From NCBI GenBank assembly GCA_963666055.2, contig CAXWPH010000015.1:384001-448000 (forward strand): DNA of 64,000 nt, written 5' to 3'. How positions within the stretch are numbered: the stretch's first letter is position 1; each line of letters opens with the position of its first letter. A program made the translations under genes and the position numbers. Under the pieces are notes generated by a model. That model did no database searches, was not told the origin of the DNA, and saw nothing but the letters and a program-made list of their open reading frames with translations. Origin of the DNA: Acidobacteriota bacterium. GTDB lineage: Bacteria; Acidobacteriota; UBA890; WLXD01. This document shows positions 26,132-56,823 of the stretch, piece after piece.

Positions 26132-26173
26132 TTGCTAGAGAGCCTCCGCTCTGTGTAGCATTACAGTGCTACA
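26132..26173 (+). promoter_or_regulatory. Toxin-antitoxin promoter/operator
   Basis: TTGCTA-18-TAGCAT; inverted repeat TGTAGCA-6-TGCTACA overlapping the -10. Confidence 0.6.
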
Positions 26174-26183
26174 GGAGGCGACA

Positions 26184-26411
26184 ATGGTTAGGAACGTAAC
26201 GCTCCGCCGTATGGGCGGCTCCGTCGGTGCCACTCTCCCCAAGGATATGGCTGACCGATTCCATTTGGCTGCGGGCGACGAAATCATGGCCGTCGAGACG
26301 GCGCACGGAATTCTACTCACTCCCTACGATCCCGACGTTGAGGAGGGCCTCCAGATCGCCGCCGAGGCTCAGAAACGGTATCAGAACGCACTCCGTGAAC
26401 TGGCCAAGTGA
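26184..26411 (+). CDS. AbrB/MazE/SpoVT family antitoxin
   Basis: LRRMGGSVGATLPK...GILLTPYDP...YQNALRELAK. Confidence 0.9.
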   Translation: MVRNVTLRRMGGSVGATLPKDMADRFHLAAGDEIMAVETAHGILLTPYDPDVEEGLQIAAEAQKRYQNALRELAK

Positions 26412-26809
26412 GTGCTGCTGAGCCGCGGTGGGTGCCGCGGCTCGTCGTCGAGGCTGCACATCTGGATCAGATCCGCGAGCACGGTGGTCTGATCGGAATC
26501 CGAGACGACAATGCGCTCGAGTCAGCTCTCGCTCGGGCACGACAACGCTGGTCCTATGAGCCTCAGGTCGACCTGCCACGCCTCGCGGCAGACGACGCGT
26601 TTGGGATTGCCTCGAACCACCCGTTTCAAGACGGGAACAAGCGCACTGCGTTCCTCGCCGCCGTCATCTTCCTCGGACTGAACGGCCTCGATTTCATCGC
26701 CCCAGAGGACGAGGTGGTTGCTCGGATGATCAGTCTAGCCTCCGGCGACATTGGCGAAGAGGACATCGCAGATTGGATCCGCTCACGAGTCAAATCCAGG
26801 GGTCTGTAG
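26408..26809 (+). CDS. doc: Death-on-curing (Doc/Fic) toxin
   Basis: HGGLIGIRD, HPFQDGNKRTA Fic motif; GTGA overlap with the antitoxin. Confidence 0.9.
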   Translation: MSAAEPRWVPRLVVEAAHLDQIREHGGLIGIRDDNALESALARARQRWSYEPQVDLPRLAADDAFGIASNHPFQDGNKRTAFLAAVIFLGLNGLDFIAPEDEVVARMISLASGDIGEEDIADWIRSRVKSRGL

Positions 26810-28388: not shown

Positions 28389-29138
28389 ATGTCCAGCGAC
28401 GACAGGCCGGCAAACAAGGGACGTCGCCAGTTTGCCACAACTCGGTGGAGCCTGGTTCTGGCCGCCGGCGAGAGCGGCTCCGACGATTCGGAGTGCGCTC
28501 TGGCAGAGCTGCGCGAGCAGTACTGGTACCCGCTGTACGCCTATACGCGCCGCCGCGGCTACGACCCCGATGATGCCCGCGACCTGACCCAGGCCTTCTT
28601 CACCAAGCTGCTCGCTGAACGGAACCTGAGGGCCGCCGACCCAACGCGCGGTCGGTTTCGCACCTTCCTGTTGTCTTCCCTGAAGAACTTCCTGGCGGGT
28701 GAATGGCGCAAGGACCATACGCTGAAACGGGGAGGCGCATTCAACGTCCTGTCGCTGGACTTCGACTCGGCCGAGGAGTCCTATCGAGTCGAGCCTTCTC
28801 ACGAGCTGAGCCCGGAGGTGATCTACGAGCGTCGCTGGGCGTTGAGCCTGCTCGAGCGGGCGGTGACCGATCTGCAGAGCCAGTACGCCAAAGCCGGGAA
28901 CCTCGAGCTTTTCAATGCACTCAAGGGTTTTCTGGGAGGCGCAGACGACGTCCTTCCTTACGCCGAGCTGTCACGGCGCCTCGGTCAGAGCGAAGGGGCG
29001 CTGCGCACCGCCGCCTCGCGTTTGCGCTCTCGCTGGCGAAAGCGGCTGCGGGAGCTGGTGGGCGAGACCGTCAGAGATGAGTCCGAGGTCCAGGACGAGC
29101 TGCAGAGTTTGATCGCCTCGGTTGATGCGGGCGTGTAA
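28389..29138 (+). CDS. ECF sigma-70 factor (Ser/Thr kinase-associated type)
   Basis: FATTRWSLVLAA, YWYPLYAY, DARDLTQAFF, GRFRTFLL, region 4 HTH. Confidence 0.9.
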   Translation: MSSDDRPANKGRRQFATTRWSLVLAAGESGSDDSECALAELREQYWYPLYAYTRRRGYDPDDARDLTQAFFTKLLAERNLRAADPTRGRFRTFLLSSLKNFLAGEWRKDHTLKRGGAFNVLSLDFDSAEESYRVEPSHELSPEVIYERRWALSLLERAVTDLQSQYAKAGNLELFNALKGFLGGADDVLPYAELSRRLGQSEGALRTAASRLRSRWRKRLRELVGETVRDESEVQDELQSLIASVDAGV

Positions 29139-29168
29139 CAGTTGGACCCCGATCGCATAGAACCAGGT

Positions 29169-30617
29169 ATGAGCCAAGCACGCATCTGTCCCAACTGTCA
29201 GACTACTGTCCCGGCCGACGCGCCCGAGGGCGTCTGCCCCGCCTGCGCACTGCGCGCTGGATTCGACACCGGGGAAGGGACCGAATCCCCGACCCAGGGG
29301 GCCCCGCCGCGGCGCTCGCAACCGTTGCCGGTCGAAGAGCTCGCCCGCCTGCTCCCAGAGCTCGAGCAGTTCGAGCTGATCGGCCAGGGTGGCATGGGTG
29401 CGGTCTACAGGGCGCGTCACCGGAAGCTCGAGCGGCTGGTTGCTGTCAAGGTGCTCGACTCGGCCCTGCGCAACCACGCTTCGTTTGCCGAGCGTTTCGC
29501 TCGCGAAGCGCGCACCCTGGCGCAGCTCGACCACCCGAACGTGGTGCGGATCTACGACTTCGGCCACCGCAACGATCTCTACTACCTGATCATGGAGCTG
29601 GTCGACGGCGTCAACCTGCGCCAGACAATCGAGGCCGGGGGGCTCGAACCGCACGAGGCGCTCGCAATGGTGCCGCCGATCTGCGAAGCGCTGCAGTACG
29701 CGCACGATCATGGCGTCGTGCACCGGGACATCAAGCCCGAAAATATCCTCGTGGACCGAAACGGCTCGGTAAAGATCGCCGACTTCGGGCTCGCGAAGCT
29801 CGTCGGGGGAGAGCCCGGGCGACGCCTGACCCAGACCGCGCAGATCATGGGGACGCCCAACTACATGGCTCCCGAACAGTTCGAGAATCCGGGCGAGGTC
29901 GACCACCGCGCAGACATCTTCGCACTCGGAGTCGTTCTCTACGAGCTCCTCACCGGTGAGCTGCCGATCGGGCGTTTCCCGCCGCCCTCGAAGAAGGTGC
30001 AGATCGACGTGCGCCTCGACGACGTGGTCCTTCGTACGCTCGAAAAGGAGCCCAGCCTGCGCTATCAGCAGGCCCGCGAGCTGCAGTTCGACGTCGAATC
30101 GCTTTCGACCGGCGGCGACCGGACGGCCGAAGTGCCAGGCGAGTCGAGACCGCGCTCAGAGCGGCAACGAGACTACGAATACCGCTCTGCCGTGACGGTG
30201 TTCGGCTTGCCGCTGGTACACATCGCCTCCGGCCGCGATCCTGAGGGCAAGAGGATGCGCGTCGCCAGCGGCATCATCGCGATCGGCGACGTGGCGATCG
30301 GGGCCGTCGCCATCGGCGTTTTCCCCTTCGGCGGCATCACCATCGGTCCCTTCGGCGTCGGCCTCGTGAGCTTCGGCGGTGCTGTCGCGGGCCTGTTGAC
30401 GGCGATCGGTGGCGTTGCAGTCGGCGGCTTCGCCGTCGGCGGGCTCGCGGCCGGTCTGGTCGCCCTCGGCGTATCGCCCTTCGGCTTCTTTGCGCCGGCG
30501 TTCGCGGTGATCCTGCCAGCGTTGCTGGTGGCAATCGTGGGCCTCGCAATCGGCGCAGTGGCAGCTGCGATCGCCTGGGTAATGGCCGCAAGGGCCCGAC
30601 CCGCTCGGCGCCGCTAA
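29169..30617 (+). CDS. Membrane Ser/Thr protein kinase with N-terminal zinc ribbon
   Basis: CPNC...CPAC, GQGGMG, VHRDIKPEN, DFG, YMAPE; Gly-rich TM C-terminus. Confidence 0.9.
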   Translation: MSQARICPNCQTTVPADAPEGVCPACALRAGFDTGEGTESPTQGAPPRRSQPLPVEELARLLPELEQFELIGQGGMGAVYRARHRKLERLVAVKVLDSALRNHASFAERFAREARTLAQLDHPNVVRIYDFGHRNDLYYLIMELVDGVNLRQTIEAGGLEPHEALAMVPPICEALQYAHDHGVVHRDIKPENILVDRNGSVKIADFGLAKLVGGEPGRRLTQTAQIMGTPNYMAPEQFENPGEVDHRADIFALGVVLYELLTGELPIGRFPPPSKKVQIDVRLDDVVLRTLEKEPSLRYQQARELQFDVESLSTGGDRTAEVPGESRPRSERQRDYEYRSAVTVFGLPLVHIASGRDPEGKRMRVASGIIAIGDVAIGAVAIGVFPFGGITIGPFGVGLVSFGGAVAGLLTAIGGVAVGGFAVGGLAAGLVALGVSPFGFFAPAFAVILPALLVAIVGLAIGAVAAAIAWVMAARARPARRR

Positions 30618-30620
30618 GGG

Positions 30621-30800
30621 TCAACCGCCCGCAAGAGACAGCCGGAAGGCGGCCATCTCCTCACCGTTGCGGACCAGCAGGAGGTCGCCGACCAGCACCG
30701 TGTGATTCCAAGTCTTGCCCTCGATCGCAGAGAGGGCGCGAGCTCCGTGAACCGGTCGGGGCGGCCGCGACCAGCGCCAGCTCACCTTTCTCCGACAGCA
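30621..30800 (-). pseudogene. 3' fragment of a PQQ-like propeller gene
   Basis: LSEKGELALVAA...AIEGKTWNHTVLVGDLLLVRNGEEMAAFRL; no 5' part, internal frameshift. Confidence 0.7.
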
Positions 30801-30818
30801 TGGACACGCTGCCTCCCG

Positions 30819-30880
30819 TGGACCCTCGCGTGCCCCAGAGGTAGGCTTCAGGCGCTCACCCACCCTGCTTCCGGAGCGCC
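30819..30880 (+). promoter_or_regulatory. Conserved kinase-gene promoter/leader
   Basis: TGGACC-17-TAGGCT then TCAGGCGCTCACCCACCCT...GCGCCATG; repeated at 38011 and 53856. Confidence 0.7.
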
Positions 30881-33403
30881 ATGGAACCCGGCACCAAACT
30901 AGGCCATTATGAGATTCTCGCGGCGCTCGGTGCAGGCGGCAGGTCAAGTGTTCGTCTCGGCCGGTGCTACTCGCTTGCAGCGCTGCTACTGGCGATCCTC
31001 ATAACCGCGAGTTGCACAGGGCTTGACCCCGGCCCGTCGCCGTTGAACGCAGAGCTTCCTCTCCACCTCGAGGATCACCTCGATGCTGCAACCATCGTCG
31101 GCTCGGATATTCCCCCCGATGTCCCCGCTACGGTGGAGTGGCGTTTCGATGAACCACCTCCGGAGTGGAAGGTTGCCGTTTCCCCGGACCCATCCTGGCA
31201 CCCATTAGAAGCAACACATACCGAGGATACGCTGCGGCTCTCCCTCACCGAAGCCACCCGCCGCGTGTTCCCGTGGGGACGTAGCGTGTACGGCGGCGTC
31301 TACATCGATTTGCCCGATTGGCAACGTGAGGATTGGGCCTACGTCCTGGTGCAAGCGCGTACCTCGGCAAAGAACCCGTCAGTCGCGGTTCAGTTCAATC
31401 TGCGCGAAGAGGCTGGGCCCACCTTATTCGAGCAATTTCCGTTTCGCTTTTTTGGCGAATTCGCGGATATGGTCAATGACGGCACGGTACAGACGTACCG
31501 GCTGCGGGCCGACTGGTCGGGAGGAACATGGCAAGGTCCATGGCGGCAGCTCGGCCTAACCTTCGCTGCCTCAGAGCCGGCCGGGATCGACCTACTGTCG
31601 GTGCGCGTGATCCCCAAGGAAGCTAACTACGCCGCTGCTTCCGCGGGGGTGCAAACGGAGACGCGTAACCGTGCCTATCGCCGCGCACTCTACATCCATG
31701 CCCCTGGCCGGGTCGACTATCGGGTCCAAGTGCCCGAGGCGGGCCGCCTCGACGTGGGGCTCGGGGTGCTGCGGGACGACGCCCCGGTGACCTTCCGGAT
31801 CACGGCCGCTCCAGCGGGCGGCCAGGCGGAGAGCCTGCTCGAGGAGACCTACGCCGACAAGGAGCGCTGGGACGATCGTTCCGTGGATCTGTCCCATTTG
31901 GCCGGGCGGACAGTGACCCTGCAACTGGAAGCGGAGGCCGAGCGAGCGGGCACCGTGGCGCTGTGGGCGGCGCCAACCGTCAGCGGTTCGCGCACCACCG
32001 ACAGGCCCAACATCGTCTTCTACGTTATCGACGGGGCCGCGGCCGATCTGATGAGCGTCTACGGGTACAACCGCCGTACTACTCCATACCTTGAGCGCCT
32101 GGCGGCCGAGGGCGCGGTCTTCGAACACGCCTATAGCAACTCCTCCTGGACGAAGCCCTCCACGGCATCGTTCATGACCTCGCTGCAGCACAGTGTGCTG
32201 GGCGGCTACAAGACCCAATCCGATCCGCTCCCCGACCAGGCCATGACCATGGCCCAGCATCTTCATCGTGCCCATTACCAGACGGCTGTGTTCGTCGCCA
32301 ACCCCAACGCCGGCACGCTGAGCAACCTGCAGCGGGGGGTCGATCTGCTGCGGGAGGACTGGGTCGAATTCAGCTATTTAGGTGGTGAGAACCACGCAGA
32401 ATCCTCGCGATTTCTGCACGAGGCGTTCTGTAAGTGGCGGGAAGCGTACCCGGCGGAGCCCTACTGGGTGCACTTTCAGACGACCGACGTCCACCAGCCA
32501 TGGAGACCGGTGGCTCCGTTCGCCGGGCTCTACGTCGGCCTGGATGTTGGCCAGCGCGTCAACGAATGGAGACAGCAGCTGGACGCGGCAAGCGGCGGAG
32601 GCCAGTGGTGGACCCGATTCGACAACACCGACATCAGTCGCATTGAGTTTTACGACGGTGCTCGAGGCCTGTACGACGAGGGGATGGCACACAACGACTA
32701 TCAGATCGGCCGGCTAGTAGAGCGTCTCAAGGCAGCAGGCGAGTGGGAGCGCACGCTGTTCATTGTCGTTGCCGATCACAGCCATGGGGCGGCCGGCCTT
32801 CCGCAGCTTGATCCGCCAGCGCCTCCGTGGTCGGGGCCAAACTTCAGCTCCTGGATCACCCGCATCCCGATGATTGTGGTCTGGCCGGAGCGCATTGCTC
32901 CCGGGCAACGCTTCAGCGAACCGGTGTCGATGATTGACATGCTGCCGACGATCCTCGATCTTGCGGGACTGCCGATGCCCGAGGTGATGCAAGGCCAATC
33001 GCTGGCGCCGTTGCTCCGGGGCGAAGAGGGCTTCCAGCCGCGGCCGGTGATCTTCGACGAATTCAACGTCGATTGGGACACGGGCGAGTTACGCGGTTCG
33101 ATCGAGCTGATCGATGGGCGATGGGGCGCGTCGTTAGAGATCAACCCGAGCCCGGAGGACGAGGAGCAGCCTGCCGAAGCGCGCCGCGCCGCCCCGCTGC
33201 TGCTCTACGACCTGTGGAACGATCCCTACTGCTTGAACAGCCTGCACGCCGAGCATCCCGACCTGGTCGAGAAGTACACCGCGTTGCTCGAGGCGCAGTG
33301 GGGAGCGCACCAGGCCCTGGCCCAGCAGTTCACTCAAGGCGGCGAGATACCGCTGACCCCGGAGCAGCTACGGGCTCTTCGGGCACTTGGCTACATCCAG
33401 TGA
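30881..33403 (+). CDS. Sulfatase-like lipoprotein with a kinase-derived first 20 aa
   Basis: RPNIVFYVID, SNSSWTKPSTAS, VADH, IPMIV, LRALGYIQ; lipobox ITASC; starts [20 protein letters not shown]. Confidence 0.85.
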   Translation: MEPGTKLGHYEILAALGAGGRSSVRLGRCYSLAALLLAILITASCTGLDPGPSPLNAELPLHLEDHLDAATIVGSDIPPDVPATVEWRFDEPPPEWKVAVSPDPSWHPLEATHTEDTLRLSLTEATRRVFPWGRSVYGGVYIDLPDWQREDWAYVLVQARTSAKNPSVAVQFNLREEAGPTLFEQFPFRFFGEFADMVNDGTVQTYRLRADWSGGTWQGPWRQLGLTFAASEPAGIDLLSVRVIPKEANYAAASAGVQTETRNRAYRRALYIHAPGRVDYRVQVPEAGRLDVGLGVLRDDAPVTFRITAAPAGGQAESLLEETYADKERWDDRSVDLSHLAGRTVTLQLEAEAERAGTVALWAAPTVSGSRTTDRPNIVFYVIDGAAADLMSVYGYNRRTTPYLERLAAEGAVFEHAYSNSSWTKPSTASFMTSLQHSVLGGYKTQSDPLPDQAMTMAQHLHRAHYQTAVFVANPNAGTLSNLQRGVDLLREDWVEFSYLGGENHAESSRFLHEAFCKWREAYPAEPYWVHFQTTDVHQPWRPVAPFAGLYVGLDVGQRVNEWRQQLDAASGGGQWWTRFDNTDISRIEFYDGARGLYDEGMAHNDYQIGRLVERLKAAGEWERTLFIVVADHSHGAAGLPQLDPPAPPWSGPNFSSWITRIPMIVVWPERIAPGQRFSEPVSMIDMLPTILDLAGLPMPEVMQGQSLAPLLRGEEGFQPRPVIFDEFNVDWDTGELRGSIELIDGRWGASLEINPSPEDEEQPAEARRAAPLLLYDLWNDPYCLNSLHAEHPDLVEKYTALLEAQWGAHQALAQQFTQGGEIPLTPEQLRALRALGYIQ

Positions 33404-33416
33404 CGCCGGGAACGAA

Positions 33417-33473
33417 CTCCTCGTCACCAACTGGTTCGACGAGCTGAAGCGGCTCGTGCCGACGGACCCGTAG
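33417..33473 (+). pseudogene. 3' remnant of a Ser/Thr kinase-propeller gene
   Basis: LLVTNWFDELKRLVPTDP*; 43/47 nt identical to the end of the kinase at 56587-56633. Confidence 0.85.
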
Positions 33474-33505
33474 CGCGTAGTTGTACGGCGTGCTTGAGTA
33501 GGGCA

Positions 33506-33853
33506 ATGGCATTCAATGACCTGGAGCTGAAGCGATGCGAGAAGGCTGTGGGCAAGTACGTCGAGTCTCGTCGCCCGCCGCCACACATTCGCCCCCAGCT
33601 TGATCTGTCGTACCGAATACAGGGGCAGGGCGTAGAAATCTTCGAAGTTCGTCCTGCTTTCAACGACCCCAGCGTGACCATAGAGAACTGTGTGGCCAAG
33701 GCCACATACGTCAAGCGCGCCCAGGTATGGCGGGTCTACTGGAGACGTGCCGACCTCAAGTGGCATCGCTATGGGCCGAGGCCCAACGCCCGTTCAATCG
33801 AGGAATTCCTCAAGATCGTCGAAGAAGACGAATTCCGTTGCTTCTATGGATAG
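33506..33853 (+). CDS. DUF3024 domain protein
   Basis: RRPPPHIRPQLDLSYRI...VAKATYVK...WRVYWRRADLKWHRY. Confidence 0.85.
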   Translation: MAFNDLELKRCEKAVGKYVESRRPPPHIRPQLDLSYRIQGQGVEIFEVRPAFNDPSVTIENCVAKATYVKRAQVWRVYWRRADLKWHRYGPRPNARSIEEFLKIVEEDEFRCFYG

Positions 33854-33908
33854 GCTCAGCGGCTGGCAATAACTTCGAACGATTCGCCCACCCTGCCTCG
33901 GGAGCGCC

Positions 33909-36705
33909 ATGGAACCCGGCACCAAACTCGGCCCCTACGAGATCACCGAACAGCTCGGTGCTGGCGGCATGGGAGAGGTGTACCTGGCGCAGGACACGCG
34001 CCTGGGCCGCAAGGTGGCCATCAAGGTGCTGCCTGCCGAGTTCGCCTCTGACCCCGAGCGCCTCGCCCGCTTCGAGCAGGAAGCCCGCGCTGCCGCCGCC
34101 CTGAACCATCCACACATTGCGGTCGTTCACGATATCGGCACCGAAGGCGGCACCCACTTCATGGTGCAGGAGTACCTGGAAGGAGACACGCTACGGGAGC
34201 CGCTACAGAAAGGTGCGCTGCCGCTCAAGAAGGCACTCGGCCTGGCCACGGAGATTGCCGAGGCGCTGGCAGCGGCACATGCCGCCGGGATCATCCACCG
34301 GGATTTGAAGCCGGAGAACATCTTCGTCACCAAGGAGGGCCACGCCAAGGTGCTGGACTTCGGGTTGGCGAAGCTCACCGAGGTGGCGGGGGCAGGCTCG
34401 CCGGGCGGTGCAACGCAGTCACCGACGATGATGGGGACGGTTGCTGGTCAGGTGATGGGTACTGCCGGCTACATGGCCCCGGAGCAGGTTGAGGGCTCCG
34501 ACAAGATCGACCATCGGGCCGACCTGTTTGCCTTTGGTGCGGTGTTCTACGAGATGGTCACAGGACGGCGGGCGTTTGCGGGCGGCAACATTCACGAGAC
34601 GCTCAGCCAGATCATCAGCAAGACTCCGCAGGCGGTTCACGAGATCCGTGATGATTTGCCGTTGAAGCTCGAATGGATCATCGACAAGGCGCTGGCGAAG
34701 GACGTGAACCGTCGCTACCACACAGCGGGCGATCTCGGAGCTGACCTTCGCCAACTCCACGATGACATCGCAGCGGGTGTGGCGGTCCTGACTGGAAGCG
34801 GCGAGATGGCCATCGCTCCAAGCGCCGTGGAAACGGCTCGCGGCATCTCGTTGAAGCTGGCCGCCCCTGTGGTTGCCGCGCTCATGCTGGTGGCGGTTCT
34901 TGCCACCTGGTGGGCAATGCAGCCGGAGCCCGAGGAGCCCGGAAGCACCATCCGCGTGCAGCTCGACCCCCGCGTCGACACGATCATGAGTAGGAACGGC
35001 TCCGCAGTCGTGCTATCGCCCGATGGACGGCACGTTGCCTACGTCGAGGGTGACCCGAACGATGGAAGCGCGCTGTACCTTCGCGCTCTGGACCAGGAGG
35101 ACTCGACGACACTCGCGTCGTCGGCAACCATCGAGGGTTCGCCGTACCATCCATTCTTCTCGCCCGACGGGCAGTGGGTAGGGTTCGTCACCCCAAGGGA
35201 GCTGAAAAAGGTGTCCATAACCGGAGGCACCCCGCAGTCGATCGCGCCGGTGAACGCGAGTCGAGGTGCGGATTGGGGACCCGACGATACGATCGTCTTC
35301 ACACCAAACCGCACCAGCGGCCTGTTTGTCGTGTCGGCTGTCGAGGGTGAGCCAGGAACGCTCACCGAGCTTTCCGAAGGCGAGCGCAGCCACCGCTGGC
35401 CCCAGTTCTTACCCGGCGACAAGGCCGTGCTATTCACTTCGGCCGGGACCGGAGGCTTCGACGGGGCCAACCTCGAGGTCGTAGATCTCGAGGTTGGCGA
35501 GCGCCAGGTCGTGCACCAGGGCGGCACCTACGGCCGATACGTGCCGACGGGCCATCTGGTGTATTCAGACGCTGGAGCGTTGTTCGCGGTGCCCTTCGAC
35601 CTCGATACCCTGGAGACGACCGGCCCGCCGATACCCGTCGTCGAGAACCTCGCCGCCAACGCTCAAGGCGGGGTCTCGTTCGACTTCTCCGAGACCGGGA
35701 TGCTCATCTATCACATCAGAAGTGGCAGCGCTTTGAGCGCTTTCCAACTCGCCTGGGTGGAACGTGACGGCCAAATCGAGCCGCTGCCCTTCGAGCCGCG
35801 TAGGTCTCAGTACTTAGACCTCTCGCCGGATGACCAGCGCATCGCGCTCCAAATCCGGGGAGATGATGGGGACTGGGACATCTGGATCTACGAGATCGAA
35901 CGAGGGGGCAGCCAGGTGCTGCTGACCACGGAGGGTAACAACCAATTGCCCGTTTGGTCGCCCGATGGAGAGTGGGTCTTCTTTAGGTCGGATCGGGGTG
36001 GCAACAACGACATCTGGAAGCGCCGGGCTGACCGGAGTCTCGACGCCGAGCTGGTGTTGGATGCAGAGGCTCCCGTGGCCCCAGTATCGATCTCGGACGA
36101 CGGTGAGATGCTGCTTTTTATCACCGGGCTTCGGGGGCAGTACGACGTGGGGATACTGGCTCTCGATACAGGTGATACGGAAATGCTCGTCGATACCGCC
36201 GTCACTGAGACTTGGCCCACTTTCTCGCCGGACGGTCGCTTCTTCGCCTTCACTTCGACCGAGACCGGGCAATACGAGGTGTACGTGCGGGAGGTATCGA
36301 GCGGTCGGACATTTCCGGTCTCGATTGCGTCGGTTCGGTGCAGTGCCCACTGTCGCGCGCCATTTCGACGATAGACAAGACGGCCTACGAGTACCCCGTG
36401 GTGGTTTTTTCCCTCGCTGGTCGCAGCATGGAAGGGAGATTTACTACCGATCCCGCGTAGGTCCAGGCATCCTCGTTGCGGAAGTGGATGTGGAGTCGTT
36501 TTCCGCATCCGACCCTGTCGAAGTCTCGGACATCGACATAAGTCGCACTGGCAACTTCGATGTCACCGCCGATGGCGACAAGTTCCTGGTGACGGTGCCC
36601 GCTGGTAGTGATGAGACTGAGGCAACGGCACCCAACACACGACTCAACGTGGTCCTAAATTGGTTCGAGGAGTTGAAGCAGCGCGTGCCGACGGGCGGCT
36701 CCTGA
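33909..36705 (+). pseudogene. Ser/Thr kinase - TM - TolB/PD40 propeller (kinase A), disrupted at ~36325-36387
   Basis: HRDLKPEN, DFG, YMAPE, SPDG repeats; the C-terminus RGGFFPRWS...[15 protein letters not shown] continues in another frame. Confidence 0.8.
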
Positions 36706-36967
36706 TGATCGGCAAGACGCTCGGCCACTACGAGATCCTCGCCCCGCTCGGTGAAGGCGGGATGGGGCAGGTGTACCGAGCACGCGACACGACGCTGGAT
36801 CGTGATGTTGCGATCAAGGTGCTGCCGGAAGACTTCGCCAGCGACGCCAACCGGCTGGCACCACCGGTGCGCCGATGACCTACATGTATGAGGGGAGACA
36901 GTTCATCGTCGTCGCGGTCGGCGGCGTCCACCACGCAGCCGAGTTCGTCGCACTCGCATTGCTGTGA
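36705..36967 (+). pseudogene. Chimera of a kinase 5' fragment and a PQQ glucose/quinate dehydrogenase 3' fragment
   Basis: [28 protein letters not shown]...RLA, then (other frame, 36857-36967) [20 protein letters not shown]...EFVALALL*. Confidence 0.75.
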
Positions 36968-37067: not shown

Positions 37068-37862
37068 CTACACTCCACTACAGGGTTTGAGGGTGACCCA
37101 GATGAGCTCGATCGGCTCGTCGCCGTTGTTGCCCGAGTCGTGCTGCTCCGACAGCTCGACGGCCTCCATCCAGCCGACAGAACCGTCGGGCGAAGGCCGG
37201 GTGCCGACTCTCTCGCTGCCATCGCGACGCCCGGACCACACACCACCCTTGACGTGAACGTAGACCTGCTCGCCCGGGTGGGAGTGCACCCCCTCCCACT
37301 GCCCCGGCTCGACGACGAACTTCTGCACCACGACGTAATCGTTCTCCAGCAGCAGTTCGCCCGGAATGTTCGGATAAAACGTGCCGGTGTGATGGTTCGC
37401 CACTAACGTGCAAGGTTTGAGGGTGATCCAGACCAACTCGATTGGGGTGTCTCCGGTGTTGCCGGAATTGTGCTCCTCCGACAGATCGATGGCATCCATC
37501 CAGCCGACGGAGCCGGCGGGCGAAGGCTGGGTGCCGATTCTCTCGCGGCCGCCACGACGCCCGGACCACACACCGCCCTTGATGGTCACCCAGAGCTGGT
37601 TGCCTGGGTGTGGATGGACCCCCTCCCACTGCCCCGGCTCGACGACGAACTTCTGCACCACGACGCGATCGTTCTCCAGCAGCAGCTCGCCCGGAATATC
37701 CGGATAAAAGGTACCGATCTCCTGGCCAGCAAAGAGCAATCCGGGGAGCGCCAGGATGACGGCGGCCAGCATCATACGGATCGGGTTTCGGGTCGCTGCA
37801 CTCGCGGGTGCTCGGCCCGGAACGCGGCATCGGTTGCCGCTCGTGAGGTCCATGGACGGCAT
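37068..37862 (-). CDS. Secreted tandem cupin protein
   Basis: Two near-identical units LLLENDxVVVQKFVVEPGQWEGVHxHPG...EHNSGN; AGGAG RBS before ATG 37862. Confidence 0.8.
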   Translation of the reverse strand: MPSMDLTSGNRCRVPGRAPASAATRNPIRMMLAAVILALPGLLFAGQEIGTFYPDIPGELLLENDRVVVQKFVVEPGQWEGVHPHPGNQLWVTIKGGVWSGRRGGRERIGTQPSPAGSVGWMDAIDLSEEHNSGNTGDTPIELVWITLKPCTLVANHHTGTFYPNIPGELLLENDYVVVQKFVVEPGQWEGVHSHPGEQVYVHVKGGVWSGRRDGSERVGTRPSPDGSVGWMEAVELSEQHDSGNNGDEPIELIWVTLKPCSGV

Positions 37863-38010
37863 CAGCTGACTCCTGGTCGAAGGACACTTGGGTCGCAGAT
37901 CGGGACACGACTCTATCAACATAAGGCCGCCAGTGGTCAAGAGCACAGTCCGTCCTAGCGCGGAATGATTACTGCGGTTGGATCGCATCAAGATCCGCCG
38001 GCTGCTCCCG

Positions 38011-38072
38011 TGGACCCTCCCCCGCCCTGACGATAGGCTTCATGCGCTCACCCACCCTTCTGCGGTAGCGCC
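38011..38072 (+). promoter_or_regulatory. Conserved kinase-gene promoter/leader
   Basis: TGGACC-17-TAGGCT...CGCTCACCCACCCT...GCGCCATG. Confidence 0.7.
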
Positions 38073-40514
38073 ATGGAACCCGGCACCAAACTAGGCCCCT
38101 ACGAGATCACCGAGCAGCTCGGCGCTGGCGGCATGGGAGAAGTGTGGCTGGCGCAGGACACGCGCCTGGGTCGCAAGGTGGCCATCAAGGTGCTGCCTGC
38201 CGAGTTTGCCTCCGACCCCGAGCGCCTGGCCCGCTTCGAGCAGGAGGCTCGTGCTGCCGCTGCGCTGAACCACCCGCACATCGCCTCGGTCTTCGATGTG
38301 GGTATGGAAGACGGCACCCACTTCATGGTGCAGGAGTACCTGGAGGGCGACACGCTTCGGGAGCCGCTACAGAAAGGTGCACTGCCGCTCAAGAAGGCAC
38401 TCGGGTTGGCCACCGAGATCGCCGAGGCGCTGGCTGCTGCACACGCTGCCGGGATCATCCACCGTGATCTGAAGCCGGAGAACATCTTCGTCACCAAGGA
38501 GGGCCACGCCAAGGTGCTGGACTTCGGCCTGGCGAAGCTCACCGAGGTGGCGGGGGCAGGATCACCGGGCGGTGCAACGCAGTCACCCACGATGATGGGG
38601 ACGGTAGCCGGTCAGGTGATGGGTACTGCCGGCTACATGGCCCCGGAACAGGTCGAGGGCTCCGAGGAGATCGACCATAGGGCCGATCTGTTCGCTTTCG
38701 GCTGCGTGCTCTACGAGATGGTGGGCGGCAGGCGGTCCTTTGCCGGCACCAACGTGCACGAGACCCTGGGGCGCATCGTCGACAAGGATCCTGAGCCGCT
38801 GGCGGCGATCGATGCGCGCTTGCCCGTCGAAGTGCAGCGGATCGCCAAGAAGTGCCTGGCCAAAGAACCGGGACGGCGTTACCAGGGGGCAGCTGAGCTG
38901 GTCATCGACTTGCGGGTACTCGAAGCCGATGTCGAGTCGGGCACGGCCATGCCGCTGGGTGGCCAGCCGGTTGTCGCTCCAGCCGTCGTGGAAACGGCTC
39001 GCACTAGCCCATGGAAGTTGGCCGTTCCGCTGGCCGTGGCCAGCGCACTTCTGGCAGCTTTGGGAGTCTGGTTCACGATCCCGTCGCCGCCAGAGTCCGT
39101 CATCACGCGCTTCTACATCGACTATCCACCAGAGACTACTTTCCTGAGCGCTGCCACCCTCGGCGTTGCGATCTCACCCGATGGCAAGTCGGTGGTATTC
39201 AACGCCAACCGGCAGCTTTGGCTCCGAGCGATTGACGATCCTGTAGCCACACCCATCCGTGGCACGGAGCAAGCTAGAGTGCCGTTCTTTTCCCCCGATG
39301 GCCGACAGCTCGGCTTTTGGGGAGGCGACGGCCAGATCAAGAGCGTTTCGATCACCGGTGGTGCTCCGGTGTCGCTGGGGCCAGCGCCTGTGCGAGCCTA
39401 CGGAGCGAGCTGGGCAGATGACGGCTACATCTACTTCGGGCAGGGTGCCGGAGGGATCTTGCGGGTCTCGGACAACGGCGGTGAACCACAGGTAGTCGTT
39501 CAGATGGAAGAGGGCGAGCAAGCCTACGGCCCCCAACTTCTTCCTGGTGGCGAGTGGTTGCTGTTTACGCTGCGGAGCGGGTCCAGCTCGTGGAACGCTG
39601 CGAGCATTGTTGCGCAGCCGGTGTCCGGCGGCGAGCGCAAGCTGCTGGTAACCGGAGGGACCGATGGTCGCTACGTGCCCACCGGCCACATCGTCTACTC
39701 CCTCGAAGGCAACCTTTTCGCGGTGCCCTTCGATGCCAACAGCATGGAGGTTACCGGAGGATCGGTGTCCGTCGTCGAGGAAGTCCAACAAGCAGCCTCC
39801 TACACGGGAGCAGGCCAGTACGCGTTTTCGGATCGCGGTGACTTCGTGTACATGCCGGGAGGTGGTGCTACGAGCGCTTTCCAACTCGCTTGGGCGGATC
39901 GTAACGGCCAGGTCGAGCCGCTGTCCTTCGAGCCGCGTTCGTTTCTCAACTTGGACCTCTCGCCGGATGACCAGCGGATCGCGGTCGAAATCCAGGGAGA
40001 TGATGGGAAGTACGACATCTGGATCTACGAGATCGAACGAGGGGGCAGCCAGGTGCGGCTGACCACGGAGGGCAACAACGAAGCTCCCGTTTGGTCGCCC
40101 GATGGAGAGTGGGTTTTCTTCGTGTCGCATCGGAGTGGCAACTACGACATCTGGAAGCGGCGAGCTGACCGGAGTCTCGACGCCGAGCCAGTGTTGCATA
40201 TGGAGGCTCCCGTGTGGCCTATGTCGATCTCGGCGGACGGTGCGATGCTGTTGTTTAAAAGCGGGGACATCCCGAATAACGACGTGGGGTTACTGGCCCT
40301 CGATACAGATCAGGAGCCGGAAATGCTCGTCGCTACCGCCGCCAGTGAGGGATGGGGCAGTTTCTCGCCGGACGGTCGCTTCTTCGCCTTTTCGTCAAAC
40401 GAGACCGGGCAATACGAGGTGAACGTGCGGGAGGTATCGAGCGGTAGGACATTTCCGAGTACTGTCAAGTTAACTCGAAATCGATCGCTACTGTCAATAC
40501 AGCGACCAGGGTGA
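38073..40514 (+). pseudogene. Ser/Thr kinase - TM - TolB/PD40 propeller (kinase B), 3'-truncated at ~40460
   Basis: Paralogue of kinase A; similarity ends after VREVSSGRTFP; the last propeller blade and the NWFEELK tail are missing. Confidence 0.8.
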
Positions 40515-43670: not shown

Positions 43671-43825
43671 ACTTCCTCCAATGGTCTTGAAACACCATGA
43701 ATGTACCTTGATTCGCTGGCCCAGCGGATACCACTATGATCTTCGACGTCGATGGAAACCTGCCACCATTCGACGGGCCGATGGGCCCAGGCCAACTCCA
43801 CAAGGGGCGCATAACCGAGACTCAA

Positions 43826-45326
43826 ATGGCCGACCCACTCCAGCCCACAGCGGCAAGGGAAGCCACGACGCTCGATACCGAGTTCAAGCGGGGACTCGGT
43901 CTCTTCGATTCCACCATGATCGTCGTCGGCTCGATGATCGGCTCGGGCATCTTCCTCGTATCTCCCGATATGGCCCGGCTGCTGGGAAGCCCTGGCTGGC
44001 TCTTGGTCGCGTGGGCCATCGCCGGCGTCCTGACGGTCGCGGCGGCCCTCCTACGGAGAGCTCGCCGCCATGATGCCGCGGGCCGGTGGTCAGTATGTCT
44101 ACATCCGCGAAGCGTTCTCGCCGCTGCTCGCTTTCCTGTACGGGTGGACGCTCTTCCTGGTCATCCAGACCGGCCTGATCGCGGCGGTCGGAGTTGCGTT
44201 CGCTCGCTACTCCCAATGGCTCTGGCCCTGGATCTCAGAGGAACGCTACATCATCCCGCCACTCCACCTGTCCACACGATATGCGGTCTCTTTGTCGACC
44301 GCCCAGTTGGTTGGCATAGGCATGATCGCCTTCATCACCTGGACCAATACGCGTGGCCTCAAGTACGGAAAACTCGTCCAGAACGTATTCACCACCACCA
44401 AGACAGTTGCGCTGGTGGCGCTCATCTTCGTTGGTGTAACGCTCGGCTGGAGAGCTGGTGGCGGCGGGGTGAACTTCACCGACCTCTGGACGCCGCGTGG
44501 AGAGGTCTCCATCGTCCCCGGCTTGACGGCGGCGACGACCTACGGCCTGTTCATCGCGGTCTGCGTGGCGCAGGTCGGATCGCTGTTCGCCGCGGATGCC
44601 TGGAACAACATCACCTTCACCGCCGGCGAAGTGAAGAACCCGCGCCGCAACCTCCCCCTGTCGTTGGCCCTCGGCACCACCATCGTGATCGCCCTGTACA
44701 TCCTGACGAACGTTGCCTACCTGGCAACGCTCCCCATCGAGCAGATTCAGACCGCACCGTCGGACCGCGTGGCCACGGCGACCATCGAAGCCATTTTCCC
44801 CGGTTTGGGCGTCGTTTTGATGTCGATTGGCATCATGATCTCGACGTTTGGATGCAACAACGGGCACATACTGTCGGGGGCGCGAGCCTACTACGCTATG
44901 GCTCGCGATGGCCTGTTCTTCGCGGTGGCGGGCCGCCTCAATAAGCAGAAGGTGCCGGCGGCAGCCCTCGTGCTCCAGGGCCTCTGGGCAGCCACGCTCA
45001 TCCTGCCGAGAACTTTCGACCCAAATACCGGCACCTACGGCAACCTCTACAACAACCTGCTCGACTACATCGTCTCGGCCTCCCTGCTCTTCTACATCTT
45101 GACCATCGCTGGTCTATTTCGTCTCCGCCGCACCCGTCCCGACGCGGAGCGGCCGTACCGCGCCTTCGGCTACCCGATCGTGCCAATCGTCTACATGGCG
45201 GGCGCGGCCACCCTTGTGGTGGTTCTTTTCACCTACCGGACCTCCACGACGTGGCCGGGCCTGATCATCGTGCTCCTCGGCGTCCCGGTCTACTTCGTGT
45301 GGCGGCGCCGCCATGGTCGGGGCTAG
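43826..45326 (+). CDS. APC family amino acid permease; 2-nt frameshift at ~44050
   Basis: IVVGSMIGSGIF, (Y)GELAAMMPRAGGQYVY, GEVKNPRRNLP, ERPYRAFGYP. Confidence 0.85.
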
Positions 45327-45601
45327 CAGACCGTGGTGAAAGTGTGGTGGGTCTGGCGACAGGGTCTTGCGAAGTGGAGGCAAGGAGAGAGGAGGAGGCG
45401 ATGGTTACCCCATCGTTGACGAGGAACGACGCAGCATGCGCGCGCAACCCCCTGTCGCCCGAAGGGTTACGGCGATTTGGGGCCATCTGCGGCGTTGGCC
45501 CTCCTGGACGATACAGCAAGCATCGCCTGCGTCGCGTCGCCTTGCATCTGGCCCCACGACGCCATAACCAGACCCACCAGAGTTTTTCAGCACCCTGTTA
45601 A
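45323..45601. mobile_element. 279-bp MITE-like element, copy 2 (inverted, one variant end)
   Basis: CTAG...TTAA flanks; reverse complement of copies 1 and 3; contains the TAG stop of the APC permease. Confidence 0.9.
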
Positions 45602-49493: not shown

Positions 49494-49772
49494 CTAACAG
49501 GCCGTGGTGAAAGTGTGGTGGGTCTGGTTACGGCGAGTTGGGGCCAGATGCAAGGCGGCCTGACGCAGGCGATGCCCTAGCCATCGTCGAGGAAGGCCAA
49601 CACCGTAAATGGCCCCAAATCGCCGTAACCCTTCGGGCGACAGGGGGTTGCGCGCGTAGGCTGCGTCGTTCCTCGTCAACGATGCGGTAACCATCGCCTC
49701 CTCCTCTCTCCTTGCCTCCGCCCCGCAAGACCCTGTCGCCAGACCCACCACACTTTCACCACGGCCTGCTAG
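49494..49772. mobile_element. 279-bp MITE-like element, copy 3
   Basis: CTAA...CTAG flanks; same TIRs and internal arms as copy 1. Confidence 0.9.
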
Positions 49773-49868
49773 GGCGACACCTCAAGCTTGACTCCTGGCC
49801 GCTACCCCCGGCGAAATCGAGGACCTCATGCGGGTCGACTTCGTTGCGCAGTTGAGGGGAATCGGGTG

Positions 49869-50183: not shown

Positions 50184-50521
50184 GACGCCGGTCACGTTAT
50201 CACCGCACGCCCCGTGCCGTCCTGAGTTTTCCTGAGTCGGTTGTTCATGTGGTCCTCTCCTGTTTTCTGTACTTCCTCAGCGAAACTCCCACGCCTTCCG
50301 CTTCGCCGGCTCGACAGGGTCCGAAGCGGGATTCTCCCGGTCTCATATTCGGTGACCACCAGGGTCTGTTGTTGTCGCGGTATACATTACCGTCCATTCC
50401 TGCGCCGTCACGTTGCCGCTGTCGGTTTGCCGACGCCAGAGTGGTGCTGGTGGCGCCGGGGACAACCCCGTTGCGCGTCGACCGACAACCCCGTCGGCGC
50501 CACCGCTCAAGGGAGACCACC

Positions 50522-51100
50522 ATGAGGTTGATGCGCGTTCCCGTCATGCCAGTCGCGGTCGCCTTGGCGGCCCTACTTTTGGCGGTTCCGAGCGTTGGAG
50601 AAGTCGTGCTTGAGGATTCCGCACTGCGGGTGGCCAACGTCTACCAGGCGAACCCGGCGCCGGAGATTTCCGCGCCGACAGCGCACATCAACGCTGCACA
50701 GGTTGGCTGGGAGAACATCGGCGCCATCACGCGCTGGAATACGGTCATTGGCGGCGACTCGATTCCCGACGACGACATGCAGGTAGGCCTCTGGGAGCTC
50801 GCGCCGCGGGCGATCTACGCCGGTCACGTTCACCCGGTACCGGAGTTCTACGTCGTCCTTGATGGGCAAGCCGAGTGGACCCTAGGCAGCGACACCTTCG
50901 TCGCCGAGCCGGGCGAGGTGGTCTACATCGCCCCGAATACGATGCACCGGATGGTGAACCTGACAGACGATCTGGTGCGGGCGGTCTGGGGCCGCTGGGC
51001 TCCGAACGGCGATCGCAGCGTGTTCGACGGCGAGTATCGGTTCGTGGAGCCGATTCCGGAACAACCACCTGAGGCAGTGTTCCCGCAGTCAGGGCAGTAA
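50522..51100 (+). CDS. Secreted cupin protein (DMSP-lyase-like motif)
   Basis: Signal peptide; YAGHVHPVPEFYVVLDGQAEW...PGEVVYIAPNTMH. Confidence 0.75.
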   Translation: MRLMRVPVMPVAVALAALLLAVPSVGEVVLEDSALRVANVYQANPAPEISAPTAHINAAQVGWENIGAITRWNTVIGGDSIPDDDMQVGLWELAPRAIYAGHVHPVPEFYVVLDGQAEWTLGSDTFVAEPGEVVYIAPNTMHRMVNLTDDLVRAVWGRWAPNGDRSVFDGEYRFVEPIPEQPPEAVFPQSGQ

Positions 51101-51390
51101 GACTGCGCTCAGGCAGCCTGTACACGCCGCGGTGGCCGGATGCGAGACCCCTCAACGCGAGACGCTCGCGCCGCTGTGATCTCGGGCCAGGCGGAGTACG
51201 CCCTTCTTCGTGCCAACCGTCGGGTTGAGCTCGATGACTACACGGAGCCATTCTGAGAGCGATCGGTGCGCCTGCCTGTATCCAGCGGCATTCCCGAGCT
51301 ACCGTTGATCCAATCGGGAGTTCGGGCTTTTGCCCAGGGTTCGGGTGGGCGCCGAACGGCTCAGCGGCGTTGGCTTGAAGGAGTCGAAGG

Positions 51391-52929
51391 ATGCGGAAAG
51401 CGACGTCATGTCGGTGGGCTTGGATAGCGATGGCCGCCCTGTCGACGCTGATCGGGTGTGGCTTGCAACCTCAGGAGCCTCCGCCGCGAGCGTCCTCGTC
51501 GGCGCTCGACGATGGCCTGTTGCGATGGGCGCTGCCGCCGGGAGCCGAGGCCTATGCGGACATCGACGGCAGGCGGCTGCACGAGTACGTGGTAGAGCAG
51601 GCGGCCATCTCACGCCGCTATCGCGACCAGGGACATCCTCGGTTCTGGGGCCGCATCACCGGTACCTCCGGCGACGCTGAGAGCGCCGCGTGGTTGGTCG
51701 CCAAATTAAGGGGGATCGGCTTGTCGGATGTGCACGCCCAACCACTCGACCTGGAGCCACAATGGATGCCACGGTCGTGGGCGGTCACGGTCACGGCAGG
51801 CGGCGAGACGATGGAGCTCGAATCGGCGCAGCCGGCCTACCGAGCGAACCCGACTCCCGCGCAGGGCCTGGATCTCGAAGCCGTGTACGTAGGTCTGGGC
51901 AGCGAGGCAGACTTCGCCGGCCGCGATGTTCGTGGCAAGGCCGTCTTTACCTTCAGGATGCCGTTGTCGAGCTCGGAAGAAGCGTTGCAACGGGCGGATT
52001 CTCGGGGCGCCGCGGCCGTCTTCAACGTCCCCATGCTGCCCGGGAACATGCGCTACCAGGCCTACCCCTCGGGGACCGTTGCGCCCGCGTTTAGCCTGGG
52101 AAGCGACGATGGCTATGCGGTCCGGGAGCTGATTGCACAGGCCTCGGATGGCGAGGCGCCGGGCGTCGCGATCAACCTCGACATCGAGCTGACGGCAGGC
52201 CTCGAAACCGCGCTCGTCTGGGCGACGCTGCCGGGGGCTACCGACGAGACCATCTACATCATGGCGCACCGCGATGGCTGGTTCGATGCTGCCGGCGATA
52301 ATGCCTCAGGGGTCGCCTCGATGATCGGCCTGGCGGAGCATTATGCTGAGATCCCAAGGGCCGAGCGGCGGCGAACGCTGGTGTTCGTCGGTCTGGATGG
52401 GCATCACAACAGCGGCCCTGGCCAAGGCGTCGGCAGAAGGTGGATGGTCGATCACAGAGACGAGCTCTTTGCCAAGGCCGCATTGGTGATCAACCTCGAA
52501 CATCCGTCGACGCTGCAGACGACCGTCCGCCCGCGGTACCACGGCACGGTGCAGACCGCCGACGGTCTGAGCTTTCGGGACAGCGACGAGATCGTCTGGG
52601 CCAACACCTACATGCCGCAGCAATGGTACGCGGGCGGACCCACGCGACCCCAGCTTCAGGCGATCGCCGTGCAGGCATTTCGTGAGTTCGGAGTCAGCAC
52701 CTATCTCGAGCCGAACCCAGTGCCACCGGCCGGTGATCTGGGCCGCTTCTGGCAGTTCGTTCCCGGGCTGGCAACCAGCGAGTTCTACCACTACTTCCAC
52801 TCCGACCTGGAGACGCCGGAGACGGTGCCGTGGACCGGGCTCGAGGCCTCGACACGCGCGCACGCACGGATTATCGACGAGGTGAACAAGCTCGAGCTCA
52901 GCGACCTGCAACGACCGGCAGAGCCCTGA
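51391..52929 (+). CDS. M28 family peptidase (PA domain), lipoprotein
   Basis: Lipobox LIGC; AHRDGWFDAAGDNASG, YFHSD; paralogue of 13440-14994. Confidence 0.85.
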   Translation: MRKATSCRWAWIAMAALSTLIGCGLQPQEPPPRASSSALDDGLLRWALPPGAEAYADIDGRRLHEYVVEQAAISRRYRDQGHPRFWGRITGTSGDAESAAWLVAKLRGIGLSDVHAQPLDLEPQWMPRSWAVTVTAGGETMELESAQPAYRANPTPAQGLDLEAVYVGLGSEADFAGRDVRGKAVFTFRMPLSSSEEALQRADSRGAAAVFNVPMLPGNMRYQAYPSGTVAPAFSLGSDDGYAVRELIAQASDGEAPGVAINLDIELTAGLETALVWATLPGATDETIYIMAHRDGWFDAAGDNASGVASMIGLAEHYAEIPRAERRRTLVFVGLDGHHNSGPGQGVGRRWMVDHRDELFAKAALVINLEHPSTLQTTVRPRYHGTVQTADGLSFRDSDEIVWANTYMPQQWYAGGPTRPQLQAIAVQAFREFGVSTYLEPNPVPPAGDLGRFWQFVPGLATSEFYHYFHSDLETPETVPWTGLEASTRAHARIIDEVNKLELSDLQRPAEP

Positions 52930-53765: not shown

Positions 53766-53855
53766 CGGATCGATCAACGTCGCTGTCAGCCTTCCTGTGC
53801 CGATGGACCCGTTGCGTCTTGAGCCGAGTCTCGCGAGCCTGCCCAACCTCTCCCT

Positions 53856-53913
53856 TGGATCCTCGCACGCTCCGGCGATAGGCTTCAGGCGCTGACCCCC
53901 CTCTGGGAACGCT
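53856..53913 (+). promoter_or_regulatory. Conserved kinase-gene promoter/leader
   Basis: TGGATC-17-TAGGCT-TCAGGCGCT. Confidence 0.65.
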
Positions 53914-56631: not shown

Positions 56632-56823
56632 CGTTCCCAGCCGAGTCTCGGGAGTGGTACGCCGACTCCCGCGTTGCGCAGGCCGCTGAATCTGGAGCCA
56701 TCCAACCAGATATTTGACTGCCACCGTTACGCTGCGAGGGCGCGCATGCTCCTTCTCATTCGAGGTGCCCGACAGCGATGGGGTTCGCGTGGACCTCGGC
56801 GAGATCGTCTGCCGCCTGGAGCG

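Follow-up and report, generated by a model that had tools for sequence, protein, structure and literature searches.

Kinase gene ends around a sulfatase-like gene: putative recombination anchors for gene capture in an Acidobacteriota genome

In the orphan arrays of Vibrio type VI secretion system (T6SS) effector/immunity genes and of Rhs and contact-dependent inhibition (CDI) genes, incoming DNA is described as being anchored in a conserved part of the gene and joined illegitimately on the opposite side, and two routes were proposed for the T6SS arrays, ordinary homologous replacement being commoner than homology-facilitated illegitimate recombination (HFIR) (PMC5361080; HFIR details also in PMC6382021). 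In this report, we describe a Ser/Thr kinase gene family whose ends may serve in a comparable way, beginning with a sulfatase-like gene at 30881-33403 of a 64,000-nucleotide (nt) stretch of an Acidobacteriota genome (the window, that is, the whole stretch analysed; C15:384001-448000 of genome G000). We document stubs of these kinase genes, their bias towards the gene ends, the arrays that they form, junctions shared between loci and cargo that has moved, and we propose, with a probability of roughly 60%, that the ends of the family provide anchors for RecA recombination, by which cargo is first captured and then spread and traded without an integrase. Integrons are characterized by the integrase IntI, the attI and attC sites and the promoter Pc; like them, the kinase-end arrays hold varied single-gene cargo with short repeats between and a promoter-like leader. 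As in the T6SS, Rhs and CDI arrays, there appear to be a conserved anchor, an illegitimate far join and displaced remnants that pile up in arrays (PMC5361080). The arrays also resemble the additive flexible islands at tRNA genes, in which cassettes are marked by partial repeats of the target gene and near-identical cassettes occur across species (PMC4898812), and the lpl cluster of Staphylococcus aureus, in which conserved stretches of paralogues are crossover sites leading to deletion, substitution and translocation (PMC2568036). A large Ser/Thr kinase family is likewise found in the acidobacterial genome of Solibacter usitatus (PMC3174227).

A sulfatase-like gene between kinase ends

The block opens on the forward strand with a kinase leader (30806-30880, an nhmmer match) carrying -35-like and -10-like boxes (TGGAYC, 17-18 nt, TAGGCT), which is promoter-like by column conservation only; a strict sigma-70 promoter and terminator scan returned nothing at 30600-31000, so that of the kinase promoter/leader claimed in the original prediction the conserved leader stands, without a promoter in the strict scan. 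The kinase head that follows (30881-30941, + strand) comprises 20 codons and 1 nt, stops in the Gly-rich loop and agrees with its best counterpart among the other heads in 55/61 nt. It provides the start codon of an 840-residue open reading frame (ORF) at 30881-33403, in which codon 21 is AGG where the kinases have ATG, and the predicted in-frame fusion of a 20-codon head to a sulfatase with this ATG-to-AGG change is thus confirmed. The remainder of the frame (30942-33403, +) is the cargo, a sulfatase-like hydrolase and predicted lipoprotein, and the protein passes from the kinase head through an in-frame hydrophobic, signal-like segment with Cys45 into a PF00884 domain (residues 376-696, E 5e-36). 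After the stop comes a 13-nt spacer (33404-33416, +), and since identical letters follow the stop in metagenome copy L152, the spacer junction is common to both copies. The spacer leads into an orphan kinase tail (33417-33475, + strand, with the start of the trailer), which is out of frame with the cargo, is spanned by unitigs and reads LLVTNWFDELKRLVPTDP and a stop codon at 33417-33473. The first 61 and the last 57 bases of a kinase gene are therefore retained around the sulfatase-like gene. A tail 13 nt past the sulfatase stop had been predicted correctly; its supposed 43/47 identity to a neighbouring kinase end was not borne out, with 34/47 nt shared with the kinase at 33909 and 42/47 with that at 53914, and its best match elsewhere in the genome is 54/57 nt. 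The active-site motif C/S-x-P-x-R (CxPxR) is characteristic of formylglycine sulfatases. It is not in the cargo, which has WTKPS at residues 423-427 instead, and the 840-residue protein scores under every NCBIfam sulfatase cut-off; judged from its residues, the cargo enzyme is sulfatase-like. A second member of its 90% cluster lies on a different contig.

The chimera is real and not a product of mis-assembly. The assembly of G000 (5.73 Mb, 15 contigs, 95.7% complete) is of the metagenome type, and an inverted copy of 13 kb at the end of contig C8 (29538-42541 versus 53958-66961, 99.9% identical, reaching the contig end) may be an assembly artefact; we excluded this mirror copy from the counts of short heads, short tails and leader-only stubs and kept it in the fragment-coverage count. 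The junctions were checked against Logan short-read unitigs, of which one run may be the source sample. Reads across the junctions, set as a test in the original prediction, were found in two studies: unitigs of run X1 (study P1, 30879-33449) and run X2 (study P2, 30877-33449) span both sulfatase junctions with 0 differences, and unitigs of X3 and X7 cover the head/sulfatase junction only. Several junctions of the array on contig C10 are likewise spanned with 0 differences, and the same junction types recur in other genomes and in metagenomes. That the stub chimeras arose by mis-assembly through kinase repeats is hence scarcely credible.

A second chimera, which joins a kinase 5' end to the 3' end of a pyrroloquinoline quinone (PQQ) dehydrogenase gene at 36705-36967, is present as predicted. 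Upstream of it lie a partial leader and a near-whole kinase gene with Pkinase and PD40 domains (33884-36705, +), whose frame is broken by a 62-nt insertion at about 36323-36384; its 97% twin (C15:790774-787852) carries the same insertion. The second kinase head (36705-36862, +), coupled to the preceding stop, is 158 nt long, of which the twin locus retains 106 nt only, and is followed by a 3' remnant of a PQQ-type gene (36863-36967, +; last 34 codons; 84% to the copy in G004, L044). The two are joined at a microhomology of 6 nt, an exact, GC-rich overlap with the G004 copy, and unitigs of X1 and X3 bridge the junction at 36862. The kinase at 38073 breaks off at almost the codon of the 62-nt insertion.

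Kinase ends also accompany relatives of the cargo. A scan of genome contigs gave only 2 relatives of full length. Among 19 sulfatase loci, heads precede the gene in G000 (3), G002 (3), G005 (2) and G020 (1, of another family) and tails follow it in G000 (1), G005 (2) and G020 (2); several other copies have a new kinase head downstream, and those of G008, G009 and G011-G014, some of them cut by contig ends, have neither head nor tail. A search of metagenomes for the junction pattern returned 19 stretches, namely 14 sulfatase genes, 3 with the last codons only and 2 AT-rich chance matches; copies L136 and L139 have both head and tail, and in L144 a head is fused to other cargo (permease-like by eye), followed by the sulfatase last codons and the tail, which suggests a reused shell. 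Among the best 120 protein homologues, 4 match the kinase-head pattern and one more does so by eye, and most have their own N-terminus; the kinase ends are therefore secondary on the sulfatase. A tree was built from 29 hand-picked rows, 24 of these homologues and 5 loci, each trimmed just after its signal peptide. On this tree, 7 changes are required to account for the 10 head-bearing copies, 6 of them forced by starred branches, and 91 of 500 shuffles gave as low a number; the sister of the window sulfatase is a copy that has a start of its own. It is a mosaic relative to three paralogues, with an identity of ~0.8 near both ends and 0.45-0.6 over nt 220-820.

Two observations on the family concern other possible anchors. 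At six places in G000 (C15:528040, C10:8297, C2:386312, C2:362021, C5:58335 and C15:1271665), the same short linker joins the 3' end of the sulfatase to a kinase head downstream, in some cases without the rest of the sulfatase, and the sulfatase 3' end may have become an anchor too. The homologues P0034, P0035 and P0061, from different clades, have a common N-terminus with HRRSLWQVL, which we take to be the start of another expanded family; these N-termini possibly reflect the same process with a non-kinase anchor.

Kinase-end stubs in this and related genomes

The original prediction asked for more than a single such case, and about a hundred stubs are present in G000, with others in other genomes. 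Motif scans found 89 heads and 76 tails, nhmmer found 91 leaders and a full-length DNA profile found 33 near-whole kinase copies, while only 19 kinases have an intact long ORF. Short heads (n = 47) measure 42-251 nt with a median of 100, short tails (n = 45) 33-204 nt with a median of 68, and 24 stubs consist of the leader only; as a control, the reversed tail core gave 1 match and the real core 64. The 191 fragments of up to 400 nt comprise 70 anchored at the 5' end, 52 anchored at the 3' end and 69 internal ones, and they cover model positions 1-200 at 38-45x, 2701-2800 at 41x and the catalytic positions 401-700 at 1.5-2.2x, so that the outer ends are ~20-fold commoner among stubs than the catalytic core. 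A further peak of 28x near 2000-2200, mostly from low-scoring matches, probably represents PD40 repeats of other proteins. Among the 19 whole kinases, DNA identity is 0.81 in the head and 0.83 in the last 45 nt, versus 0.64-0.76 for the kinase domain outside the head and 0.37-0.58 for the middle of the gene, and the catalytic positions 401-700, so seldom represented among stubs, still reach 0.65-0.76; a rare Leu codon occurs in the head of 15/20 kinases, versus 4.7% genome-wide. Stubs match whole kinases at 86-100% and so offer the homologous anchor beside new DNA that arrays of the HFIR type call for.

Most stubs cluster around kinases. Within 10 kb of a kinase with a whole head lie 73 of 116 stubs (random expectation 12%), and 63 of these 73 are on the strand of that kinase. 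Upstream of the 45 short tails, we found another tail in 12 cases, a short head in 9, a longer kinase piece in 9, a leader in 4 and nothing within 6 kb in 11. The two-ended head-cargo-tail shell, proposed originally as the general form, is accordingly a minority, and the co-orientation with the parent kinase and the tail-after-tail cases are features of displaced-remnant arrays of the HFIR type. Two heads are joined straight to tails as empty shells. In 20 fetched array regions, 59 of the 98 non-kinase genes were scanned, and the cargo includes PQQ dehydrogenase, TonB receptor, M24 and M19 peptidases, copper amine oxidase, beta-lactamase-family hydrolases, amidohydrolase and cyclase; 20 of the 59 had no match at 1e-8.

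Breakpoints vary in position. Because some short heads are divergent or frameshifted kinases, 11 of 48 were left out of this count, and the 37 head breakpoints that remain lie at 36-452 nt, with a group of 12 at 60-79 nt, in the stretch of the Gly-loop codons. In the tails, truncation is graded and proceeds from the 5' side, leaving 18-204 nt; loss of the 3' end is rare. Such scatter is not that of site-specific recombination. Random breakpoints were originally held to count against the idea if this were the only such case; the tabulated positions are scattered, yet the case is not alone.

The claim that captured cargo comes under the kinase promoter is not borne out as a general rule. By a simple gene caller, the gene after 50 short heads is on the same strand in 30 cases and on the opposite strand in 17, with 2 empty shells and 1 head followed by none, and only 5 of the 50 heads form in-frame fusions; the gene before a short tail is on the same strand in 26/45. 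Against a genome-wide same-strand baseline of 3171/4620 (69%), the proportion after heads (30/47) and that before tails do not reveal co-oriented cassettes under one promoter, and with the strict scan blank at the leader of 30806-30880, general promoter capture was rejected. After leader-only stubs, the next gene is on the same strand in 18/24.

A search of 21 genomes found the leader and head in 11, and most of the copies belong to the same genus. For G002, G003 and G004, counts refer to regions fetched around heads and tails rather than to whole genomes, and these hold 24, 5 and 3 short heads and 15, 8 and 12 short tails, respectively. Cargo blocks in these regions are 86-99% identical to blocks at other loci of G000, and of the 218 edges of shared blocks, 55 have a kinase end no more than 100 nt away, versus a background of 9%. 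One cargo keeps a 98-nt head junction at two loci of G000 and one of G002, and for another the head upstream is of class B in G000 and of class A type in G002. In comparisons between genera, heads and tails appear mostly to match the kinases of the host lineage: five sulfatase heads of genus g1 score 0.86-0.98 to g1 kinases versus 0.73-0.88 to those of G005 and G020, and the G020 sulfatase head matches its own kinases at 0.90. Separately, a 2.1-kb insert with a kinase tail and head in G002 (L021:3766-5875) is absent at G000:C2:25946-25998; it is bounded by an imperfect direct repeat of ~52 nt that is single in G000, and since this repeat is a different one, the filled-versus-empty pair was rejected as evidence of kinase anchoring.

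A second kinase type is involved elsewhere. The metagenome sulfatase L154 (P0092) has a different kinase head and bears both ends of a Gemmatimonadota-type kinase. Its 40-residue head used as a query matched 790 proteins; among the best 120, 117 are kinases and 3 are not (two sulfatases and an amidohydrolase), and the three of the 120 that have a taxon name are Gemmatimonadota. Among the matches listed, the commonest ending of the long kinases with this head (10/63) is the L154 tail bar one residue. In G000, the type is represented by one 40-codon head, with no whole gene and no other motif match. The cargo behind it is common to G002 and G004, and at L042 of G004 a host-type head fragment stands at the Gly-loop codons. 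Of a hand-over between lineages this is the best single hint, and it is one case.

Proposed mechanism and its alternatives

Under the proposed mechanism, capture would be a rare event in which incoming DNA, paired with a kinase along one flank and joined through a short microhomology at the other, creates a new kinase/cargo junction, as in HFIR, and it would leave a displaced head upstream or a displaced tail downstream. Spread would then follow by single or double crossovers at heads or tails, which would copy stub-bearing cargo into other kinase loci and other genomes; the junction would stay fixed, and the outer part of the stub would be replaced by the kinase type of the host. The outcome would be head-cargo-head arrays, tail-cargo-tail arrays, two-ended shells and empty shells. 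The original suggestion that kinase ends behave as recombination anchors without a dedicated integrase is supported by the end bias, the arrays, the shared-block edges and the integrase scans described below. Also in favour of the proposed mechanism are the scattered breakpoints, the 6-nt overlap at the one head/PQQ junction, cargo that changes locus while its junction stays put, ends that mostly follow the host lineage, the changes needed on the sulfatase tree together with the mosaic paralogues, and the Gemmatimonadota-type ends of L154 with the single head of that type in G000.

Several observations weigh against this mechanism. Kinase ends stand on both edges of only 4 of 119 shared blocks, in regions that were themselves picked around kinase ends, and we found no two strains whose shells differ in contents between identical flanks. 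Immediately upstream of the sulfatase block lies a 3' remnant of a PQQ-repeat beta-propeller gene (30619-30794, - strand; 81-82% to the end of the intact gene in G004 and G003), which ends where the kinase-end block starts; at the site matching 30794, G003 and G004 have the intact PQQ-repeat gene of 575-578 residues and no kinase block, and G002 differs again. The block thus came by insertion or rearrangement and not by replacement of a known resident kinase. Host tracking fails for the G005 head (0.76 to its own kinases, 0.84 to those of genus g1), for the G005 tail and for L018 of G002, and within the genus such tracking is blurred by the far larger number of kinases sampled from G000. The proteins on the sulfatase tree are mosaic, and the calls of 'no head' rest on predicted starts. 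Many tails, at only 33-70 nt, are short for RecA anchors, and HFIR is described as less frequent than homologous recombination by orders of magnitude (PMC5361080). Apart from the head/PQQ junction, an unfused copy was available for a few junctions, which have 0-2 nt of microhomology, and two of them lie at repeated ends resembling insertion sequences (IS). Finally, the recA, comEC, dprA and mutS genes present in the genome are weak evidence in its favour; comEC and dprA are also found in 10-11 of 14 control genomes, and their presence therefore says little.

It is rather unlikely that the stubs are what deletion has left of redundant kinases, the deletions stopping at the next useful gene, the ends being kept for a promoter, start signal or transcript end, and a two-ended shell being two separate deletions in a kinase-cargo-kinase array. 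Such decay would fit the opposite-strand genes that often end 10-60 nt from a head breakpoint, the conserved edge of the leader, which begins at the -35-like box, the start codon that the head gives to the five in-frame fusions, some longer truncations that stop at repeated, IS-like sequence, and the empty and internally deleted kinases that occur. The orientation of neighbouring genes, no higher than baseline, speaks against it, as does the out-of-frame tail, for which no cis role was found: 27 tails with trailers gave no covarying hairpin, the pairs being invariant or broken with a mean z of -0.67, which also ruled out a structured RNA or DNA hairpin in the tail. Tail-cargo-tail runs, cargo moves that keep the junction and the foreign-type head would be left unexplained.

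We consider it distinctly unlikely that a site-specific recombinase or mobile element recognizes the kinase ends as tRNA-targeting integrases do their targets, with the stubs as attL/attR scars, although the tails nearly always retain the 3' end, their last 18 nt are 80-100% conserved per column (in copies that had been selected on part of the motif), and the arrays resemble arrays of tRNA fragments (PMC4898812). Integrase matches do lie within 3 kb of a kinase end in 9/28 cases, above the 13.5% expected at random; the flanks of 14 of the 28 were examined, and 6 of the 7 array-near integrases among these adjoin a tRNA or tRNA fragment, leaving a kinase-targeting integrase unsupported. The continuous stub lengths of both heads and tails, moreover, offer no fixed crossover. 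None of 23 genome matches to the integron integrase (TIGR02249) passed the cut-off, the best, at 149 bits, being a stop-containing C-terminal fragment that lies 30 kb away from the closest stub, and a simple pattern scan for attC, without a covariance model, gave 21 candidates, none inside the arrays and one convincing by eye (C15:777418). With no intact integrase, no attC in the arrays and no covarying hairpin, an integron was rejected. A broken integron-integrase C-terminal fragment (L094; C10, about 50400-51400) lies beside what by eye is an antitoxin-like/toxin-like pair.

Anchoring at kinase ends may extend further, and we advance as tentative, and less likely than not, the wider idea that kinase termini underlie a cassette system that works across phyla and without an integrase. 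Hosts of the Acidobacteriota-like and Gemmatimonadota kinds would wrap the same cargo families in their own ends, with hand-over through the common Gly-loop and NWF codons, and the kinases would be kept partly as a landing-pad network for niche genes.

The wider window and comparison with known systems

Further kinase-related features lie downstream of the chimera. A DUF3024 gene (33494-33853, +, by domain match) follows the orphan tail, and its 3' end with a partial leader is also found upstream of an other-class kinase at C15:198321 of G000. A cupin cargo gene (37068-37991, -) is 98% identical to copies elsewhere in G002. It is followed by a leader and kinase-PD40 gene (37999-40457, +) whose likeness to other copies ends ~250 nt short of the normal end, and an intact family member of 905 residues, with leader and tail, occupies 53845-56633 (+; domain, leader and tail matches). 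Upstream of the chimera, a kinase of another type accompanies an extracytoplasmic function (ECF) sigma factor gene at 28389-30617 and at L059; the pair is kept in G003 and G004, and in G004 the kinase is disrupted by a transposase-like ORF. Elsewhere in the window, a 280-bp repeat with long terminal inverted repeats, resembling a miniature inverted-repeat transposable element, lies at 49494-49773 (+) and about 45323-45585, with 95 or more near-full copies across G000 and dozens of others, at 88-96%, in G002-G004; an amino-acid permease gene is split across two frames (43736-45326); and a small AbrB-like gene precedes a Doc/Fic-like gene (26166-26809, by eye from translations). In the genome, 16 of 18 matches to TIGR03436, an acidobacterial VWFA family, are above the cut-off, which makes an acidobacterial host likely.

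If the anchoring mechanism is correct, the conserved ends of a multigene family would constitute a dispersed gene-acquisition platform that is invisible to finders of integrons, IS and islands. It would explain how marine uncultured bacteria swap hydrolases, dehydrogenases and transporters across species, perhaps across phyla, and it would provide dozens of natural junctions for gauging how far HFIR, familiar chiefly from transformation in the laboratory, contributes to the evolution of wild genomes. For annotation, non-kinase proteins that open with a kinase Gly-loop are to be taken as real fusions and not as annotation errors.

The kinase arrays differ from each of the related systems. The T6SS, Rhs and CDI arrays carry cognate toxin/immunity cargo (PMC5361080), whereas the kinase arrays carry unrelated metabolic genes in either orientation; in addition, both ends of the kinase gene are used, and dozens of loci carry such anchors. 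In contrast to the tRNA islands (PMC4898812), the target is a protein-coding multigene family, with stubs of both ends and of continuous lengths, and the integrases of G000 point to tRNAs and away from kinase ends. In the lpl cluster, the conserved part is central and halves of paralogues are shuffled (PMC2568036), whereas the kinase system has conserved termini and carries unrelated genes. The kinase paralogues of Solibacter usitatus are mostly less than 50% identical, and the available part of that report mentions neither end remnants nor cargo (PMC3174227). Unlike integrons, the kinase arrays have no intact IntI, no attC within them, no fixed crossover, no covarying hairpin and no orientation bias. 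A literature search, thin on subscription journals, returned no paper on kinase-end cassettes. The ingredients are known, and the novelty is that a signalling-kinase family scattered over the genome is used at both of its gene ends, for unrelated cargo and in two kinase types, a combination absent from the literature searched. The system resembles an integron in appearance but fails the integron tests, and in its working it is like an anchor-displacement array.

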